Sequence record: OZ335960.1
Length of the DNA: 64,000 nucleotides
Direction: 5' to 3' (one strand)
DNA from: a phage
Part shown: positions 16,315 through 59,050 of the stretch, piece by piece
Layout: each line of letters opens with the position of its first letter
How positions within the stretch are numbered: position 1 is the stretch's first letter
Program-made: the position numbers and the translations under genes
Notes under the pieces: model-generated
What the model saw: the letters and a program-made list of their open reading frames with translations, nothing else
Told to the model about the DNA's origin: nothing
Databases searched by the model: none

Positions 16315-17141
<827 letters not shown>

Positions 17142-17149
17142 TTTATCTC

Positions 17150-17485
17150 CTAATATAAAGGATCGGGAACATATCCACTAGCTTTAATCATTTTAATTAA
17201 TGTTAACATTCCTTTATTAACTGCTAGTGAAATTTCATCAAAAACTTCATCACTAAAAAGTTCTAACACGCCCTTCTGAACTTTTAGTTTACAGCCAACA
17301 ATTTCGTCATCGCCTATAGTAAATTCGTTTCCGCCAATTCCACCGAAAAACTTAATTACGCCAGTTAACTGTCTTCCACGAGAATATGGGTCGTGCGATA
17401 AAGTAATATGAGTCACCCCAGGTACAGTTTTAAATTGGCAGCGGATGTTTACTTGAGCAATTCCAGTTACATGAATGTCAGACAT
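17150..17485 (-). CDS. hypothetical protein
   Basis: ORF track 111 aa. Confidence 0.45.
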   Translation of the reverse strand: MSDIHVTGIAQVNIRCQFKTVPGVTHITLSHDPYSRGRQLTGVIKFFGGIGGNEFTIGDDEIVGCKLKVQKGVLELFSDEVFDEISLAVNKGMLTLIKMIKASGYVPDPLY

Positions 17486-17495
17486 AATATTTTCC

Positions 17496-17738
17496 TCAAA
17501 CAGTCTTTTTCACAATTTTCCAATCAGCTTTAAACTGTTCAACATCAGAATGGTAAATCCAGAATCCTGCGCTTTCTCCATCCTCGTAAAGAGGGCATCC
17601 ATCACATTCATCTTCCCATCCCATGTCACGCAAAAGATGTTCAGCTTTTTCAACAAGTTCAGAATCTTTACCGATGATATTAAAATACCATTTACCTCTA
17701 ACTTCTGAATCTTTAATACTCTGGCGTTGTAATCTCAT
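17496..17738 (-). CDS. hypothetical protein
   Basis: ORF track 80 aa; early promoter at 17848-17876 upstream. Confidence 0.45.
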   Translation of the reverse strand: MRLQRQSIKDSEVRGKWYFNIIGKDSELVEKAEHLLRDMGWEDECDGCPLYEDGESAGFWIYHSDVEQFKADWKIVKKTV

Positions 17739-17847
17739 TTTATTCTCCTTAGCAAGCTTTAATCAAAAGATATAAACAGACCAACATAACTATTGCCATA
17801 ATATAAGGTGCGAACATTTTCTTTTCTCCATTAGTTTTGATAGGGTA

Positions 17848-17876
17848 ATAGTATCACACTACTACCCTTTTGTAAA
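17848..17876 (-). promoter_or_regulatory. T4-type early promoter
   Basis: Minus strand GTTTACA, 17 nt, TACTAT. Confidence 0.55.
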
Positions 17877-18263
17877 CTACTTTTTGAAAGTTTTTCGCAA
17901 AAGTTCAATGATTTCATCTACATTGTTTTCGTCAACAATGCAGTGAATTTTTGTCACGCCAGAAACTATACCTTCATTAGCGGATTGAGGCTTTTCTAAA
18001 GTTACCTCAGTAAAGTATTTGAATTCTTCAGAGTAAATCTCAAAATACGTCTCAAGTGGGCCACCCGCCATGTATTCAGTGCCATCTTCCATAGTTACAC
18101 GTACCACACATTCACCAGCACAATCATCACTTTCCATTTCATCTACAACAAAACTAGGCCCGTGCTTCTCTATTAAATTTAGCATCATTACATTGCAACG
18201 GCACTCGTTAGCAAAGTCATTTTTAAATAAAGGGTTAATGATATAAGTTTTTCCAACTTCCAT
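17877..18263 (-). CDS. hypothetical protein
   Basis: ORF track 128 aa. Confidence 0.45.
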   Translation of the reverse strand: MEVGKTYIINPLFKNDFANECRCNVMMLNLIEKHGPSFVVDEMESDDCAGECVVRVTMEDGTEYMAGGPLETYFEIYSEEFKYFTEVTLEKPQSANEGIVSGVTKIHCIVDENNVDEIIELLRKTFKK

Positions 18264-54457: not shown

Positions 54458-54703
54458 TTATTCACCAGTTACTTTCCACAAATCTTCGTTTGCAGCAATC
54501 CATGCATCACGTTGATTTTCTTCGTATACTGTAGTATATGCTGCTTTTTCTGAAGGGAATATCTGATAATGAGCGCCAGAAATTTTGTGAACGTCAGAAT
54601 AAAGAGGGAAAGCTACAGAAATTTCTTTTCCTTCAATTTTCTTATTTCCATCTAATTTCTGCTCAAATGTTTTAATATTAACATAACCGCGAGTACTAGC
54701 CAT
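54458..54703 (-). CDS. soc: small outer capsid protein Soc
   Basis: 81 aa; matches recalled T4 Soc; late promoter TATAAATA upstream. Confidence 0.9.
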   Translation of the reverse strand: MASTRGYVNIKTFEQKLDGNKKIEGKEISVAFPLYSDVHKISGAHYQIFPSEKAAYTTVYEENQRDAWIAANEDLWKVTGE

Positions 54704-54733
54704 GTAATTCTCCTTTTATTTAAATTACATGAC

Positions 54734-54741
54734 TATTTATA
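54734..54741 (-). promoter_or_regulatory. late promoter (TATAAATA) for soc
   Basis: Minus strand TATAAATA about 25 nt before the soc RBS AAGGAGA. Confidence 0.55.
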
Positions 54742-54775
54742 ATAAATTCTCACAGCTTTTAAGCTGTCGTTTATA

Positions 54776-55294
54776 TTAATAACCTCGGTCTTGACGAGCG
54801 AAGTTTTCGGCATTTTTTAGATAATAAAGTTTAAAGATTTCTTCAGCCGTAAGACCGAGACTCTGGAACATGTTCAGAACGAAATGAAGAATATCAATCA
54901 TTTCAAATTTAATTTCCAACTGGTCTTGTGGAGATAAGTCAGTAATCAGAGTTTCACGACGTTCACCGTGTTGAGCTTTCCACGGCTTCCATACAGCAGA
55001 TGCATCTTTTTCGCCATTGCTCATACCACCAAGAGAAGTCAGTAGTTCGCGGAATTCATCATCAATATAATCTTTCTGATTACGCAGCCAATCAACAACT
55101 TCACCTGCGGTAGCCAAATCATCAGGATGACGGTTATATTCAGGTTTATCTTTAGCTAAACGAACCTGCAGAGATTTCTGCATATCAAGCATAACTTGCA
55201 GCGGATCTTTTTCATCACCGAGAATATCCCAGTATTCGTTTTGAGCTTTATCAGCGCCTTCAATCAGTTGTGAACATTCATTAAAGTAAGCCAT
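54776..55294 (-). CDS. 56: dCTP pyrophosphatase gp56 (MazG-like)
   Basis: Track ORF (GTG at 55387) trimmed to ATG 55294 with AAAGGA RBS giving 172 aa. Confidence 0.85.
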   Translation of the reverse strand: MAYFNECSQLIEGADKAQNEYWDILGDEKDPLQVMLDMQKSLQVRLAKDKPEYNRHPDDLATAGEVVDWLRNQKDYIDDEFRELLTSLGGMSNGEKDASAVWKPWKAQHGERRETLITDLSPQDQLEIKFEMIDILHFVLNMFQSLGLTAEEIFKLYYLKNAENFARQDRGY

Positions 55295-55365
55295 TATTTT
55301 TCCTTTCAATTCATGGGTTAGTAGATTAATTATACAATAAATATATAAAGCAATAAGGAGGACAT

Positions 55366-55566
55366 ATGGTACAAAAATTAATGGCACTTGTTAATGCCAT
55401 AAAAGGTAATAAAAGACGTATAGCTTTTACTATTTCTGCTATGGTAGGAATTTTACTTTGGAATTTTATTTTATCACCAATTGCTATTGCTCATGGCGTT
55501 AATATTCCAGTAATTACTCTTGATACATTCGTAGATTTAGCATTTGCTTTAGTTGGGTTAATTTAA
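55366..55566 (+). CDS. small hydrophobic protein on the opposite strand, convergent with gene 61
   Basis: 66 aa; strong RBS AAGGAGG 4 nt before ATG 55366; two predicted hydrophobic helices; 3' end overlaps the gene 61 stop. Confidence 0.4.
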   Translation: MVQKLMALVNAIKGNKRRIAFTISAMVGILLWNFILSPIAIAHGVNIPVITLDTFVDLAFALVGLI

Positions 55567-56591
55567 ATCTTAGCATATTTAGATAGCCGCATTTTAGCCA
55601 TCAACCCTTGAGCAATATTATTTTTCATATATTCCATAATTTGTTCAGGGGTTGCACCTTCCTTTCTAATCATATCATTAACATCTTTTGATTTCCAGGG
55701 AGATTTGTCCCAAAACATAACCCTTTCTCCTGCATCAACTAATTTAGTCATTCGTTTAATAGTGTCAGGGTGACGAGGTTCATTATCTAAAACCCATACA
55801 CGTCTATCTTTAAATGGAACAATTTCTAGGTCTAATTGACCACCCGTAATAGCTATACCATTTTCAATAAAAAGTGAATCTATAGGTCCTTCTAGAACAT
55901 ATACATCACCATCTTTGACTCGTTCAACTCCATAGATTTTTGTTGCCTCAGGATAAGCTTTGATGGTAATATATTTTTGAGGAGCATCTTTCTTTAGTGC
56001 ACGTCCTTGAAAAGACTCAGCTTTTCCATTAGCGTTATAAATTGGAATAACAAGACGAGGCTCAGGTATTTCCTTTTTATATGTTCCTGGCGCTATACTA
56101 TTAACTAATTTAGGCCATTCGGTTGTAAACCAAAGATATTTCCATTTATCCTTTGGAATACAACGAGCTTTTACATATTTTATAATTGGATGGTCTTCCG
56201 CCAGTTTATCTAATCTAATGCATGACGGAAGAGATTTAATTATTTTCTTCTCAGGTTGTTTAGGAAGTTCTTTAGGTTTTTCTACTGGACGACTTTTACC
56301 TTTTTCTTTTCTTATTTCAAAGATATACTCACGATATAAATCGGGTTCAAACTCCTTTAAATATATTCCAATTGGTGCATGATAGTTACAGTTATAACAA
56401 TGAATATTTCCTTCATTATTATCACCATAATACCATCCACGGGCTTTATTTTGGTCGGTTTTTGAATCTCCACAAACAGGGCATCTAAACCGCAATTTAA
56501 AAGTTGAACTATTATTTACTTGTGTGAATTTAGGTAAATGAGCTAATGCACGGTATGCAAACTCATTATCAATCCAAGGTATTGATGACAT
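55563..56591 (-). CDS. 61: DNA primase gp61
   Basis: 342 aa; N-terminal zinc ribbon CPVCGD...CYNCNYH and TOPRIM-like core. Confidence 0.9.
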   Translation of the reverse strand: MSSIPWIDNEFAYRALAHLPKFTQVNNSSTFKLRFRCPVCGDSKTDQNKARGWYYGDNNEGNIHCYNCNYHAPIGIYLKEFEPDLYREYIFEIRKEKGKSRPVEKPKELPKQPEKKIIKSLPSCIRLDKLAEDHPIIKYVKARCIPKDKWKYLWFTTEWPKLVNSIAPGTYKKEIPEPRLVIPIYNANGKAESFQGRALKKDAPQKYITIKAYPEATKIYGVERVKDGDVYVLEGPIDSLFIENGIAITGGQLDLEIVPFKDRRVWVLDNEPRHPDTIKRMTKLVDAGERVMFWDKSPWKSKDVNDMIRKEGATPEQIMEYMKNNIAQGLMAKMRLSKYAKI

Positions 56592-56593
56592 TT

Positions 56594-56758
56594 TTACTCT
56601 TCTTTTTCTTTAGATTCCTCTTTTTTCTTTTTAGGAATCTGTTCAGGACCTTTATTTACTACAGCGCCTGACGTTGTTCCAGTGGAGATATTTTCAGGAT
56701 TACCACCTGAATCTCCAGCGACCATATCTTCTTTAATAAATTCTTTAAACGTTTTCAT
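56594..56758 (-). CDS. small hypothetical protein (61.1 position, below track cutoff)
   Basis: Hand translation MKTFKEFIKEDMVAGDSGGNPENISTG... 54 aa. Confidence 0.3.
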   Translation of the reverse strand: MKTFKEFIKEDMVAGDSGGNPENISTGTTSGAVVNKGPEQIPKKKKEESKEKEE

Positions 56759-56770
56759 ATTAGCCTCTAA

Positions 56771-57064
56771 TTATTCACCTACCACTTCAGCGATGATATT
56801 TTTATTATTAAAGTTTTTATCGCAATACAGAACATAATTATACTGCATTACACCGCCAGACTTAAGCTGTTTTTGCACTTCAACTTTCATTTCAGGACGA
56901 TCACGCTCAACGATATTCATAATATCTGCTTCAATTTGAGTTTCAACCTCAGTCTGATCTGCAGTCATAGACCACTCACACAAATCTTTGTCATAACCCG
57001 CCATAGCAGGCTGAGCAGCGCAAGAAGATAAAGCAAAAATTGCAGCAAAGATAAATTTTTTCAT
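56771..57064 (-). CDS. sp: Spackle periplasmic protein (lysozyme inhibitor, superinfection exclusion)
   Basis: 97 aa with cleavable signal peptide (AQPAMAG); position between 61 and dmd. Confidence 0.75.
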   Translation of the reverse strand: MKKFIFAAIFALSSCAAQPAMAGYDKDLCEWSMTADQTEVETQIEADIMNIVERDRPEMKVEVQKQLKSGGVMQYNYVLYCDKNFNNKNIIAEVVGE

Positions 57065-57122: not shown

Positions 57123-57422
57123 TTATTTTAAAACTTCTGCATAATCGCATGTTACAAACTGTTTCTCTAACTTGACGATTTTACGAAAGTATCTTTTGCA
57201 TTGACGAATCTGTCGCTTCGTAGGGCGCACAGCAAACTTAATAAATTCCACTCGACCAAATGGAGGACTTTCTTCTGCCGGAATATCTAACACCAATTCC
57301 CACGTATCTGCAATAAGTGCTTTAAATTGAGTATTTTTCCTGACGTTATACGGAGTAGGTTTAAATAAAACAATATGCATATTATCCTCGGCAATCCACT
57401 TCGCATACTTTCTTGTCATCAA
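57123..57422 (-). CDS. hypothetical basic protein (61.4 position)
   Basis: ORF track 99 aa; overlaps the dmd start. Confidence 0.45.
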   Translation of the reverse strand: MMTRKYAKWIAEDNMHIVLFKPTPYNVRKNTQFKALIADTWELVLDIPAEESPPFGRVEFIKFAVRPTKRQIRQCKRYFRKIVKLEKQFVTCDYAEVLK

Positions 57423-57564
57423 TGAAAGCTTTAACTAGTGCTTTATTAACTTCAGCATATTGATTAGTAGCCCATTGAACGTCATCTTTCATCATTGTGA
57501 TTTCTTTAGTAAACATGCTTTCGTTCTTAAACCACCCCATAAAAACTACCTTTACCAATTCCAT
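57382..57564 (-). CDS. dmd: Dmd antitoxin (inhibitor of host RnlA/LsoA toxins)
   Basis: 60 aa, matches recalled T4 Dmd; own consensus early promoter upstream. Confidence 0.85.
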   Translation of the reverse strand: MELVKVVFMGWFKNESMFTKEITMMKDDVQWATNQYAEVNKALVKAFIDDKKVCEVDCRG

Positions 57565-57622: not shown

Positions 57623-59050
57623 CTAAAATTTTAATTCATTTGCCAAAGCATCTAACTGAGCTCGAGCAGATTCGTTTCTTTGATAGCGATTCTGTTCAGC
57701 CTGAATCTGTTGTGAACCTGCTACTTCGTTCACTTCAGTTGGAGTAGAATCTTGTTCAATTTCTACCCATTTCTGATTTCCTTTTTGAACACCCATTAAA
57801 AACTTATTCCATTTATTCTTATCACCATATCGTGATTTGATTTGCTTAATGAGTTGTTGTTCAGCAGCTGCTAACTCCTCGGTTTCAATGACCGCAAGCA
57901 TAAAATCAGCTGTTGCTGGAAGCCCGGCAGATTCTGCAATATCGCTCATGTTAACATCAGAAGAATCCCAAGCTTGCTTACCAACCTGTGCTGCAGTCCA
58001 AAGAACGGTTTCGGTTTCAACAGCAAGAGCACGCAATTCCTCTGCGATAGCTTTAACAGTCGTGTAACTATTTTCTGAATAAACTCTAATGCGGCAAGAT
58101 TTACAAATACCCAGATAGTCAACAATAATGATTGTTGGAACAAAATTCTTCTTGAGCTTCAATTCATTCAAGAGAGACCTGAATGTATTAGCGTCTGCTC
58201 CACCAGTAGGATACTGTTTAACGATTAAACGACCGAGAGTAGATTTCTCACGCCATTTTTCCATTTTTCCTTTATATTCAGCGTAAGAAATATGCCCATC
58301 ATCAATGTCATCAAGAGAAACATCAAGCATATTAGCATCAATACGCTTAGCACAGACTTCTTCTGCCATTTCCATGGAAATGTAAAGAACATTATGTCCG
58401 AGCTGCAAATAATCTGCTGCTAATGAACACAATCCTAATGACTTACCAACGTTAACACCAGCCATTAAAACGTTCAGTGTTCCAGTTTCAGCTCCGCCTT
58501 TAGTAATTTTATTTAGAATTTTGAGTTTAAATGGAACCTTACGAGCTTTATTCATATAAGATAGCCAACGTGCTTCGTAGTCATCCATCCAATCATGACC
58601 AACGTAACTATCAAATGAAATTGATAATGCTTGGCGCATGATGTCAGGAATAGCACCAACATCCGGCATTTTCTTATTTCGTTTTTCCGGAGGAAGCTCA
58701 GCATTAGTTTGAATTTCAATTATTTTAGATGTGGCGTTAAACATCGCCCTTTGCTGAACATATTTTTCTGTTTCTTTTACTAACCAGCTGTGGTCTTCTG
58801 GAGAATCGGCTAGTTTCGAAATAAGTGTTTTTACACCAGAATATTCTGTTTCAGTAAATGAACTATTTTCTAATGCAACATTTAACGCATTAATAGATGG
58901 AACGCTATGGTACTCATTAACATGAGATTTAATTAATTTGAATGTATTTTTAGCTGGACCACTTTCAAAATATTCTGAATCCATATATGGCCAAACTTTT
59001 GAAAAATAAGCTTGATCAAATATGAGATGAGAAAGAATAATTTCTACCAC
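57623..59050 (-). CDS. 41: replicative DNA helicase gp41 (DnaB family)
   Basis: 475 aa; Walker A GVNVGKS. Confidence 0.95.
   Translation of the reverse strand: MVEIILSHLIFDQAYFSKVWPYMDSEYFESGPAKNTFKLIKSHVNEYHSVPSINALNVALENSSFTETEYSGVKTLISKLADSPEDHSWLVKETEKYVQQRAMFNATSKIIEIQTNAELPPEKRNKKMPDVGAIPDIMRQALSISFDSYVGHDWMDDYEARWLSYMNKARKVPFKLKILNKITKGGAETGTLNVLMAGVNVGKSLGLCSLAADYLQLGHNVLYISMEMAEEVCAKRIDANMLDVSLDDIDDGHISYAEYKGKMEKWREKSTLGRLIVKQYPTGGADANTFRSLLNELKLKKNFVPTIIIVDYLGICKSCRIRVYSENSYTTVKAIAEELRALAVETETVLWTAAQVGKQAWDSSDVNMSDIAESAGLPATADFMLAVIETEELAAAEQQLIKQIKSRYGDKNKWNKFLMGVQKGNQKWVEIEQDSTPTEVNEVAGSQQIQAEQNRYQRNESARAQLDALANELKF

Follow-up and report, generated by a model that had tools for sequence, protein, structure and literature searches.

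The junction between genes 56 and 61 was analysed in a 64-kb stretch of the phage sequence record OZ335960.1 (hereafter the window), to which the analysis of this phage was confined. Both genes, coding for the dCTP/dUTP pyrophosphatase (dCTPase) and a DNA primase of 342 amino acids (aa), are located on the minus strand, and the ATG of gene 56 (55294) is separated from the stop codon of gene 61 (55563) by 268 bp (55295-55562). The only sizeable open reading frame (ORF) in this gap lies on the plus strand (55366-55566). A preliminary description of the window had already reported the junction coordinates, a gap of about 270 bp and a 66-aa ORF with its ribosome-binding site, all of which were verified. 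It had also noted that the 3' end of the ORF overlaps the gene 61 stop; the TAA stop codon of the ORF and that of gene 61 indeed share a common TTAA, resulting in a 4-nt overlap (55563-55566). A gene on the opposite strand had been called unusual for this region, in agreement with the RB32 genome, in which just three 'w' genes are found in the first ~66 kb.

The section 54700-56700 of the window matched 740 phage records by megablast, almost all of which are Tequatrovirus, with Shigella phage Sfk20 as the top match (98.1%). The window runs collinear with positions 125911-165890 followed by 1-25362 of the complete RB32 genome at 92-97% identity, and it was classified as an RB32-like Tequatrovirus. 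The gene names around the junction were assigned via the T4 and RB32 annotations.

The plus-strand ORF was assigned to the RB69ORF029w/RB32ORF030w/T2_32 family (PHROG 2024) and corresponds to an already known hypothetical gene. It is annotated in RB32 as RB32ORF030w, 'similar to RB69ORF029w', and likewise in T2 (T2_32). The window copy differs from the RB32 copy by three residues, and is 94-95% identical to those of RB32 and T4. The comparison with PHROG 2024 by hmmscan resulted in an E-value of 8.1e-31 (residues 2-66 on profile positions 1-65 of 65), and all 31 aligned relatives match the same family. The members of the RB69ORF029w family are 63-69 aa long and share the position, the plus-strand orientation convergent on gene 61 and usually the TTAA stop overlap. 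They are missing from the T4 reference annotation, and nothing of substance sets the window copy apart from them.

By tblastn the protein was found in 693 phage records. The Tequatrovirus copies are more than 88% identical to it, those of other genera 44-54%, and among the matches listed it adjoins the primase gene in nearly every annotated record. A profile search of 5.8 billion proteins added a second subfamily from Klebsiella phages and Gaprivervirus. Searching 1.84 billion cluster representatives with a hidden Markov model (HMM) yielded just 18 clusters, which comprise proteins of 33-70 aa save for one weak repeat match, so that the family is narrow. Its proteins (~52-70 aa) have a basic N-terminus, a hydrophobic helix and the core motif W-N-[FYL]-x3-P-x-A-x3-G-x2-[LI]-P-x4-[DE]. 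The residues W32, N33, P38, G44 and P48 are invariant or nearly so in the alignments and are all present in the window protein. In VR25 there are two tandem paralogs (2495-2692 and 2701-2901 of the extracted locus), which are ~23% identical to each other and of which the second resembles the Klebsiella phage copies. In TH40, the site of this second copy (~2700-2900 of the extracted locus) has a sequence that differs from that of VR25 and may be disrupted.

Within Tequatrovirus, the ratio of nonsynonymous to synonymous substitutions (dN/dS, Nei-Gojobori) is 0.10-0.30; most intergenus pairs, in which the synonymous sites are saturated, gave 0.08-0.35. This purifying selection, together with a frame of constant length at a single position in at least seven genera of the Tevenvirinae, identifies the ORF as protein-coding. 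The preliminary description was therefore right in treating it as a genuine gene, given its distribution and the selection acting on it. A GGAGG-type site precedes nearly all orthologs. An Rfam scan of 55100-55800 returned nothing credible and thus gave no support for a structured non-coding RNA.

The product is hydrophobic, as had been described before, with a computed grand average of hydropathy (GRAVY) of 1.24. It has a predicted transmembrane segment at approximately residues 19-43 and a second hydrophobic stretch (45-66) with D53 and D57, and all five basic residues are located at positions 4-18. A transmembrane segment at 21-41 was predicted in RB69ORF029w by Nolan et al. 2006. The AlphaFold2 model calculated with the family alignment is moderately confident (predicted local distance difference test score, pLDDT, of 78) and contains helices at 2-12, 16-42 and 52-63. 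Scanned directly against Pfam, the window protein showed no family hit above threshold; a match to DUF6124 was sub-threshold (E 0.086) and was treated as noise.

T4 holds an intact 66-aa copy of the ORF (94% identity) at record positions 17738-17938. The copy lies within the 309 bp that separate the start codon of dam (17625) from the stop of gene 61 (17935). These 309 bp carry no annotation in either NC_000866 or AF158101, and the exact protein sequence of the T4 copy was not found in the NCBI protein sources. The T4 references thus miss a conserved gene under purifying selection that is probably expressed late, and proteomic, CRISPR interference and transcriptomic screens built on the T4 reference annotation would overlook it.

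Table 1. Features at and around the 56-61 junction of the window.
Feature	Position	Strand	Details
Gene of predicted small membrane protein (66 aa)	55366-55566	plus	ORF, annotation, PHROG 2024
Shine-Dalgarno sequence AAGGAGG	55355-55361	plus	4-nt spacer to ATG 55366
T4-type late-promoter motif AATAAATA, A(-13) variant of TATAAATA	55336-55343	plus	22 nt before ATG
MotA box TATTGCTTTA	55355-55346	minus	11-nt spacer to -10
-10 hexamer TATAAT of putative gene 56 middle promoter	55334-55329	minus	predicted start ~55322
Terminator-like hairpin ATGGCATT-AACA-AGTGCCAT (55400-55381), then TAATTTTTGT	55371-55400	minus	terminator scan
dam presence/absence site	55335-55354		20 nt vs 899 nt in T4 (record 16826-17724)
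soc	54458-54703	minus	
Gene 56	54776-55294	minus	ATG 55294, translation MAYFNEC...
Gene 61	55563-56591	minus	ORF list and annotation in relatives
61.1	56594-56758	minus	
sp	56771-57064	minus	
dmd	57382-57564	minus	
Gene 41	57623-59050	minus	

The dam cassette and the layout of the junction

Gene 69 and dam had been named in the preliminary description as the content of the 56-61 interval of T4, and the plus-strand ORF had been regarded as an alternative occupant of their site. The dam gene is indeed annotated in this interval, and gene 69 is not. The idea of an alternative occupant had to be given up, since T4 carries the same ORF beside dam, and the ORF hence does not replace it. In the alignment of the window with T4, homology extends from gene 56 through the -10 hexamer (55334) and resumes exactly at the AAGGAGG (55355). 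The 899 nt which T4 has between these points consist of the dam coding sequence, specifying the Dam N6-adenine methyltransferase (record 16846-17625), and its upstream region, so that the difference lies to the left of the ORF. On this comparison dam is classified as an optional cassette of ~0.9 kb located immediately left of the ORF.

The statement that no adenine methyltransferase is visible in the window was confirmed with T4 Dam as tblastn query, for which the best E-value across the 64 kb was 1.9. The dam-less reading also withstood a whole-genome check in RB32, which has the same junction: no Dam homolog was detected by tblastn (best E-value 1.0; positive control T4, 8e-177), and no methyltransferase is annotated in the complete RB32 genome. 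A scan of the long open frames for the methyltransferase motif [DNS]PP[YFW] gave one hit, which was rejected as a chance match in an otherwise unsupported frame.

Among 504 junction-matching records, 335 also cover the left 60 nt and share the dam-less layout; the remaining records align only from the ribosome-binding site onward. In agreement with this split, T4-like dam DNA (at least 90% identity) was found in ~182 records. The cassette is therefore present in T4, T2 and about one third of the Tequatrovirus records and absent from about two thirds. In T2 and OE5505 a further hypothetical ORF of 181-186 aa is located between dam and the small ORF (65-610 and 41-601 of the extracted loci, respectively). 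The junction is thus classified into at least three forms, without dam, with dam alone and with dam plus an extra gene.

The arrangement 56(-)/small ORF(+)/61(-) without dam was also found in RB69 and phage 55 (Mosigvirus), NC-G (Dhakavirus), VR25 and TH40 (Gaprivervirus), S16 (Gelderlandvirus) and KPV15 (Jiaodavirus); in Moon (Moonvirus), additional small genes separate 56 from the ORF. Judged by these genomes, the compact 56-ORF-61 junction is the usual layout of T-even-type phages. For the window itself, the outcome is mostly a correction of the earlier reading: the layout is ordinary, the gene is a known hypothetical and dam is accessory.

Gene 69, which we take to be segF, has no counterpart in the window. 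In T4, segF is placed between soc and 56. The window gave no SegF match, and the spacing between soc and gene 56 is only 72 bp (54704-54775), with segF absent as in RB32.

Without dam, the virion DNA is predicted to be free of phage-directed GATC methylation, which could alter the sensitivity to restriction or defence systems reading adenine methylation. The GATC sequence is strongly under-represented in the window, with 67 sites vs ~208 expected from the base composition, and in the RB32 genome (209 sites vs ~539 expected), although these phages are without Dam. For T4, the published start of Pdam (17617; PMC2988021) lies 8 nt within dam as annotated (ATG 17625, minus strand), which reflects either a numbering offset or a dam translation that begins further downstream.

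Promoters and terminator-like hairpins

The late promoter of T4 is defined by TATAAATA at positions -13 to -6 (PMC2988020). The plus-strand motif upstream of the ORF (Table 1) differs from it by A(-13), which is the commonest natural variant, occurring in 9 of 50 T4 late promoters (PMC2988020), and the -13 position is poorly conserved among T4 relatives (PMC1524935). The predicted transcription start is located at ~55349, resulting in a 17-nt leader. An xATAAATA motif is found 12-23 nt 5' of the ATG in five lineages, namely dam-less Tequatrovirus, T4/T2/OE5505, Mosigvirus, Gaprivervirus and Jiaodavirus, the upstream flanks of which are mutually unalignable. The variants are GATAAATA in T4, T2 and OE5505, AATAAATA in Mosigvirus and CATAAATA in Gaprivervirus and Jiaodavirus. 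With 13 occurrences of ATAAATA in 128 kb (both strands of the window) against ~43 expected from composition, the chance of finding it in a given 20-nt span is ~0.002. From this conserved and rare motif we infer that the ORF is probably a late gene transcribed from near 55349. The scarcity of ATAAATA suggests selection against stray late promoters. On the minus strand, TATAAATA is present at 54741, just upstream of soc.

For the minus strand, a MotA box and a -10 hexamer were identified upstream of gene 56. The MotA box consensus is (a/t)(a/t)(a/t)TGCTTtA, at a distance of 12 +/- 1 bp from the -10 sequence TAtaaT (PMC2988021), and both the sequence and the spacing in the window fit this middle-promoter consensus. 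When the window is aligned with T4, its -10 hexamer coincides with that of T4 at record 16820-16825. In the T4 middle-promoter table, the promoter upstream of gene 56 is listed as 'P56/69' with the start at 16813 (PMC2988021), and the T4 record annotates the P56/69 transcript as oriA primer RNA. By this alignment the gene 56 promoter of the window is identified as the counterpart of T4 P56/69, i.e., a promoter of the MotA-dependent type. This middle promoter and the putative late promoter of the small gene are arranged back-to-back within ~25 bp.

The terminator-like hairpin detected on the minus strand falls on the strand of the gene 61 transcript and within codons 6-12 of the ORF. It is kept in the window, T4 and T2 and is not found in the other genera, and the record of Yersinia phage fPS-65 annotates the same hairpin as a terminator. 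Transcripts of gene 61 are probably terminated, though weakly, by the element at 55400-55381. NC-G and KPV15 show no overlap of the ORF with gene 61, and a GC-rich hairpin fills the 18-nt gap between the two. These hairpins, AATAGGGAGGAAACTCCCTATATTTT in NC-G (~2693-2710 of the extracted locus) and AAGGGGCTTTGGCCCCTATATCTT in KPV15 (~1693-1710), are flanked by A/T runs. They look like bidirectional terminators, which would fit two independent convergent transcription units.

Similarity to holins and possible roles of the protein

A remote similarity to holins was detected for the protein family. Three relatives match the same C-terminal part of PF11351 (GTA_holin_3TM) with E-values of 0.03-0.1 and 13.6-15.3 bits, the Pfam gathering threshold being 24.8 bits, and one relative matches the holin family PHROG 3427 at 5e-4. 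A tblastn search with a distant member reached the 'GTA-like holin' of phage Pan1 and, in Rhodobacter phage RC1, a protein of 170 aa that scores 24.2 bits on PF11351 and whose gene directly follows a phage lysozyme gene. For comparison, a profile was built from 26 proteins homologous to that of RC1, among them Rhodobacter capsulatus proteins named 'Holin of 3TMs' in UniRef. The alignment of the family with this profile by hhalign resulted in a probability of 82.8%, an E-value of 9.3e-6 and a score of 34.6 over 40 columns, which reach from the transmembrane helix through the LP(P) turn into the second hydrophobic helix. Reversed controls scored 8.7-9.5 and 200 column shuffles 11.3 +/- 2.5 (maximum 22.1), so that the match is not explained by composition.

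The window protein aligns to columns 111-151 of the 187-column PF11351-type template and ends at the hydrophobic G-L-I. Shared with the PF11351 proteins (rcc00556, the putative holin of the Rhodobacter capsulatus gene transfer agent, and the RC1 homolog) are a helix with L-W-x-W-N or L-W-N, (A/I)LP(P), an acidic residue and a second helix ending in G-L. We read the ORF family as remotely homologous to the membrane segment of PF11351 and not as a member of PF11351. The holin function of rcc00556 has itself been termed putative (PMC3423380).

Foldseek searches against BFVD returned family members only, of which just the ortholog from phage OE5505 carries a functional name ('Holin', in UniProt), and a search against the PDB gave nothing meaningful. 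Weak matches to transmembrane helices of acetylcholine receptors in a profile search of PDB sequences were rejected as compositional. The T4 holin gpt, the antiholin RI and the early membrane proteins Imm and Ac are likewise small phage inner-membrane proteins, and gene t, coding for gpt, is also located on the plus strand. No similarity to any of the four was found, as the family searches return only PHROG 2024 and the weak holin-family matches. Furthermore, gpt differs in its length of 218 aa and its large periplasmic domain, and the genes of RI, Imm and Ac are on the minus strand.

Taken together, the explanation we favour, with a little better than even confidence, is that of a compact standard junction with back-to-back promoters, a real late holin-like accessory gene and an optional dam cassette. 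According to this proposal, the MotA-dependent middle promoter would drive gene 56 on the minus strand, and read-through from gene 61 would meet the weak hairpin terminator at 55400-55381. The late promoter AATAAATA and the strong ribosome-binding site would express the 66-residue inner-membrane protein late in infection. The protein is predicted to have a cytoplasmic basic N-terminus and a transmembrane helix at ~19-43 bearing the W-N...P motif of the family. A short turn, G..(I/L)P, would then lead into a second hydrophobic helix, in which acidic residues are conserved. It may act on the inner membrane late in infection, affecting the timing of lysis or the energisation of the membrane, with gpt remaining the main holin. 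T4 t mutants do not lyse, so that the ORF protein cannot be a sufficient holin, and any role in lysis would be accessory. Such a holin-like accessory role is the best single guess at the function, and a tentative one.

Several observations weigh against this explanation. With regard to late expression, S16 and Moon carry ATTAAATA instead of xATAAATA, no late-promoter motif was found upstream of the ORF in Dhakavirus NC-G, and no late promoter upstream of RB69ORF029w was listed by Nolan et al. 2006. The literature on RB69ORF029w, on T4 transcription near gene 61, on mapped T4 start sites and on T4 ORFs missing from the annotation yielded nothing on this gene, and support for the ORF from transcripts, ribosome profiling or proteomics was found for none of the phages. 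With regard to the holin similarity, the scan of the window protein gave no match to PF11351, the scores of its relatives fall short of the threshold, and the hhalign probability is just 83%, over a hydrophobic segment. The PF11351 proteins are ~170 aa long with an N-terminal region of ~100 residues, whereas the T-even protein of ~66 aa is without this region and also without the charged C-terminal tail typical of holins. The ORF adjoins genes 56 and 61 and no endolysin gene, in contrast to the RC1 homolog in its lysis cassette, and the e, t, rI, rIII and pseT.2/.3 (spanin) genes of RB32 all lie elsewhere. The neighbourhoods of the distant homologs are ambiguous, with a lysozyme ~1.5 kb away in one of four cases and tail or unknown genes around the other three, and this context was not used as support for a holin.

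A real late membrane protein unrelated to lysis is a possible though doubtful alternative. The protein might function in superinfection exclusion or immunity like Imm and Sp, or as a membrane anchor or assembly factor, and its likeness to PF11351 would then reflect a shared membrane-hairpin architecture. The region is rich in small membrane or periplasmic proteins, with sp in the window and sp, imm and imm.1 clustered in RB69. Moreover, the ORF is never found beside an endolysin gene in Tevenvirinae, its distant homologs are not in lysis cassettes, and the protein has no charged C-terminal tail. However, Imm and Sp are early proteins encoded on the minus strand, whereas the ORF is on the plus strand with a late-promoter motif, and the profile similarity to the holin membrane segment far exceeds the shuffled controls. 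It is rather unlikely that a second holin-like protein has gone unnoticed in T4 and all of its close relatives, i.e., a minimal 66-residue form of the membrane part of holins of the gene transfer agent (GTA) type, made late from its own promoter and left out of the T4 reference annotation. If true, this protein would join gpt, RI and RIII in lysis timing, lysis inhibition or the late collapse of the membrane potential. The distant link to a holin segment is a testable lead in the best-studied lytic phage, the lysis system of which is regarded as well characterised.

Two further explanations place the function in the DNA or the transcript. The late transcript from 55349 could be a regulatory unit, antisense to the 3' end of gene 61 and opposing the middle transcription of gene 56, which would help to shut off replication genes late and leave the peptide secondary. 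T4 transcribes both strands at several sites and at differing times (PMC2988020), the late and MotA promoters overlap back-to-back, and in Tequatrovirus no plus-strand terminator follows the ORF, so that a late transcript would run antisense into gene 61. In NC-G and KPV15, however, the GC-rich hairpin between the ORF and gene 61 would stop this read-through, the strong ribosome-binding site is conserved, and a dN/dS well below 1 at saturated synonymous sites, with the amino acids conserved, shows selection on the protein itself, which makes a mainly regulatory unit improbable. It is more improbable still, to the point of being hardly credible, that the ORF is unexpressed and its DNA preserved only because it also serves gene 61 as 3' untranslated region and terminator and the gene downstream as promoter region. 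The hairpin inside the ORF and the omission of the ORF by the T4 curators would fit this explanation. The hairpin is restricted to Tequatrovirus, though, whereas at least seven genera, with amino-acid identities of ~50% or less, retain the frame, its length and the protein motifs, and the dN/dS of 0.08-0.35 and the tandem paralog in VR25 likewise argue for an expressed protein. For the same reason, a Tequatrovirus-specific hairpin against a protein conserved across genera, the notion of the ORF as mere antisense of the gene 61 terminator or untranslated region was rejected.

Neighbouring genes

The gene 56 region of the window shares 94-98% identity with gene 56 as annotated in Tequatrovirus records, among them RB32. 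Beyond gene 61 (Table 1), 61.1 nearly abuts sp, with 56759-56770 as the intervening sequence, and the window is without 61.2 and the 61.2-like RB32ORF033c. RB32 holds ~970 bp more at this site (record 17159-18125), and T4 has 61.2 there. By comparison of the three genomes, the 61.1-sp site is classified as a second presence/absence polymorphism near the junction.

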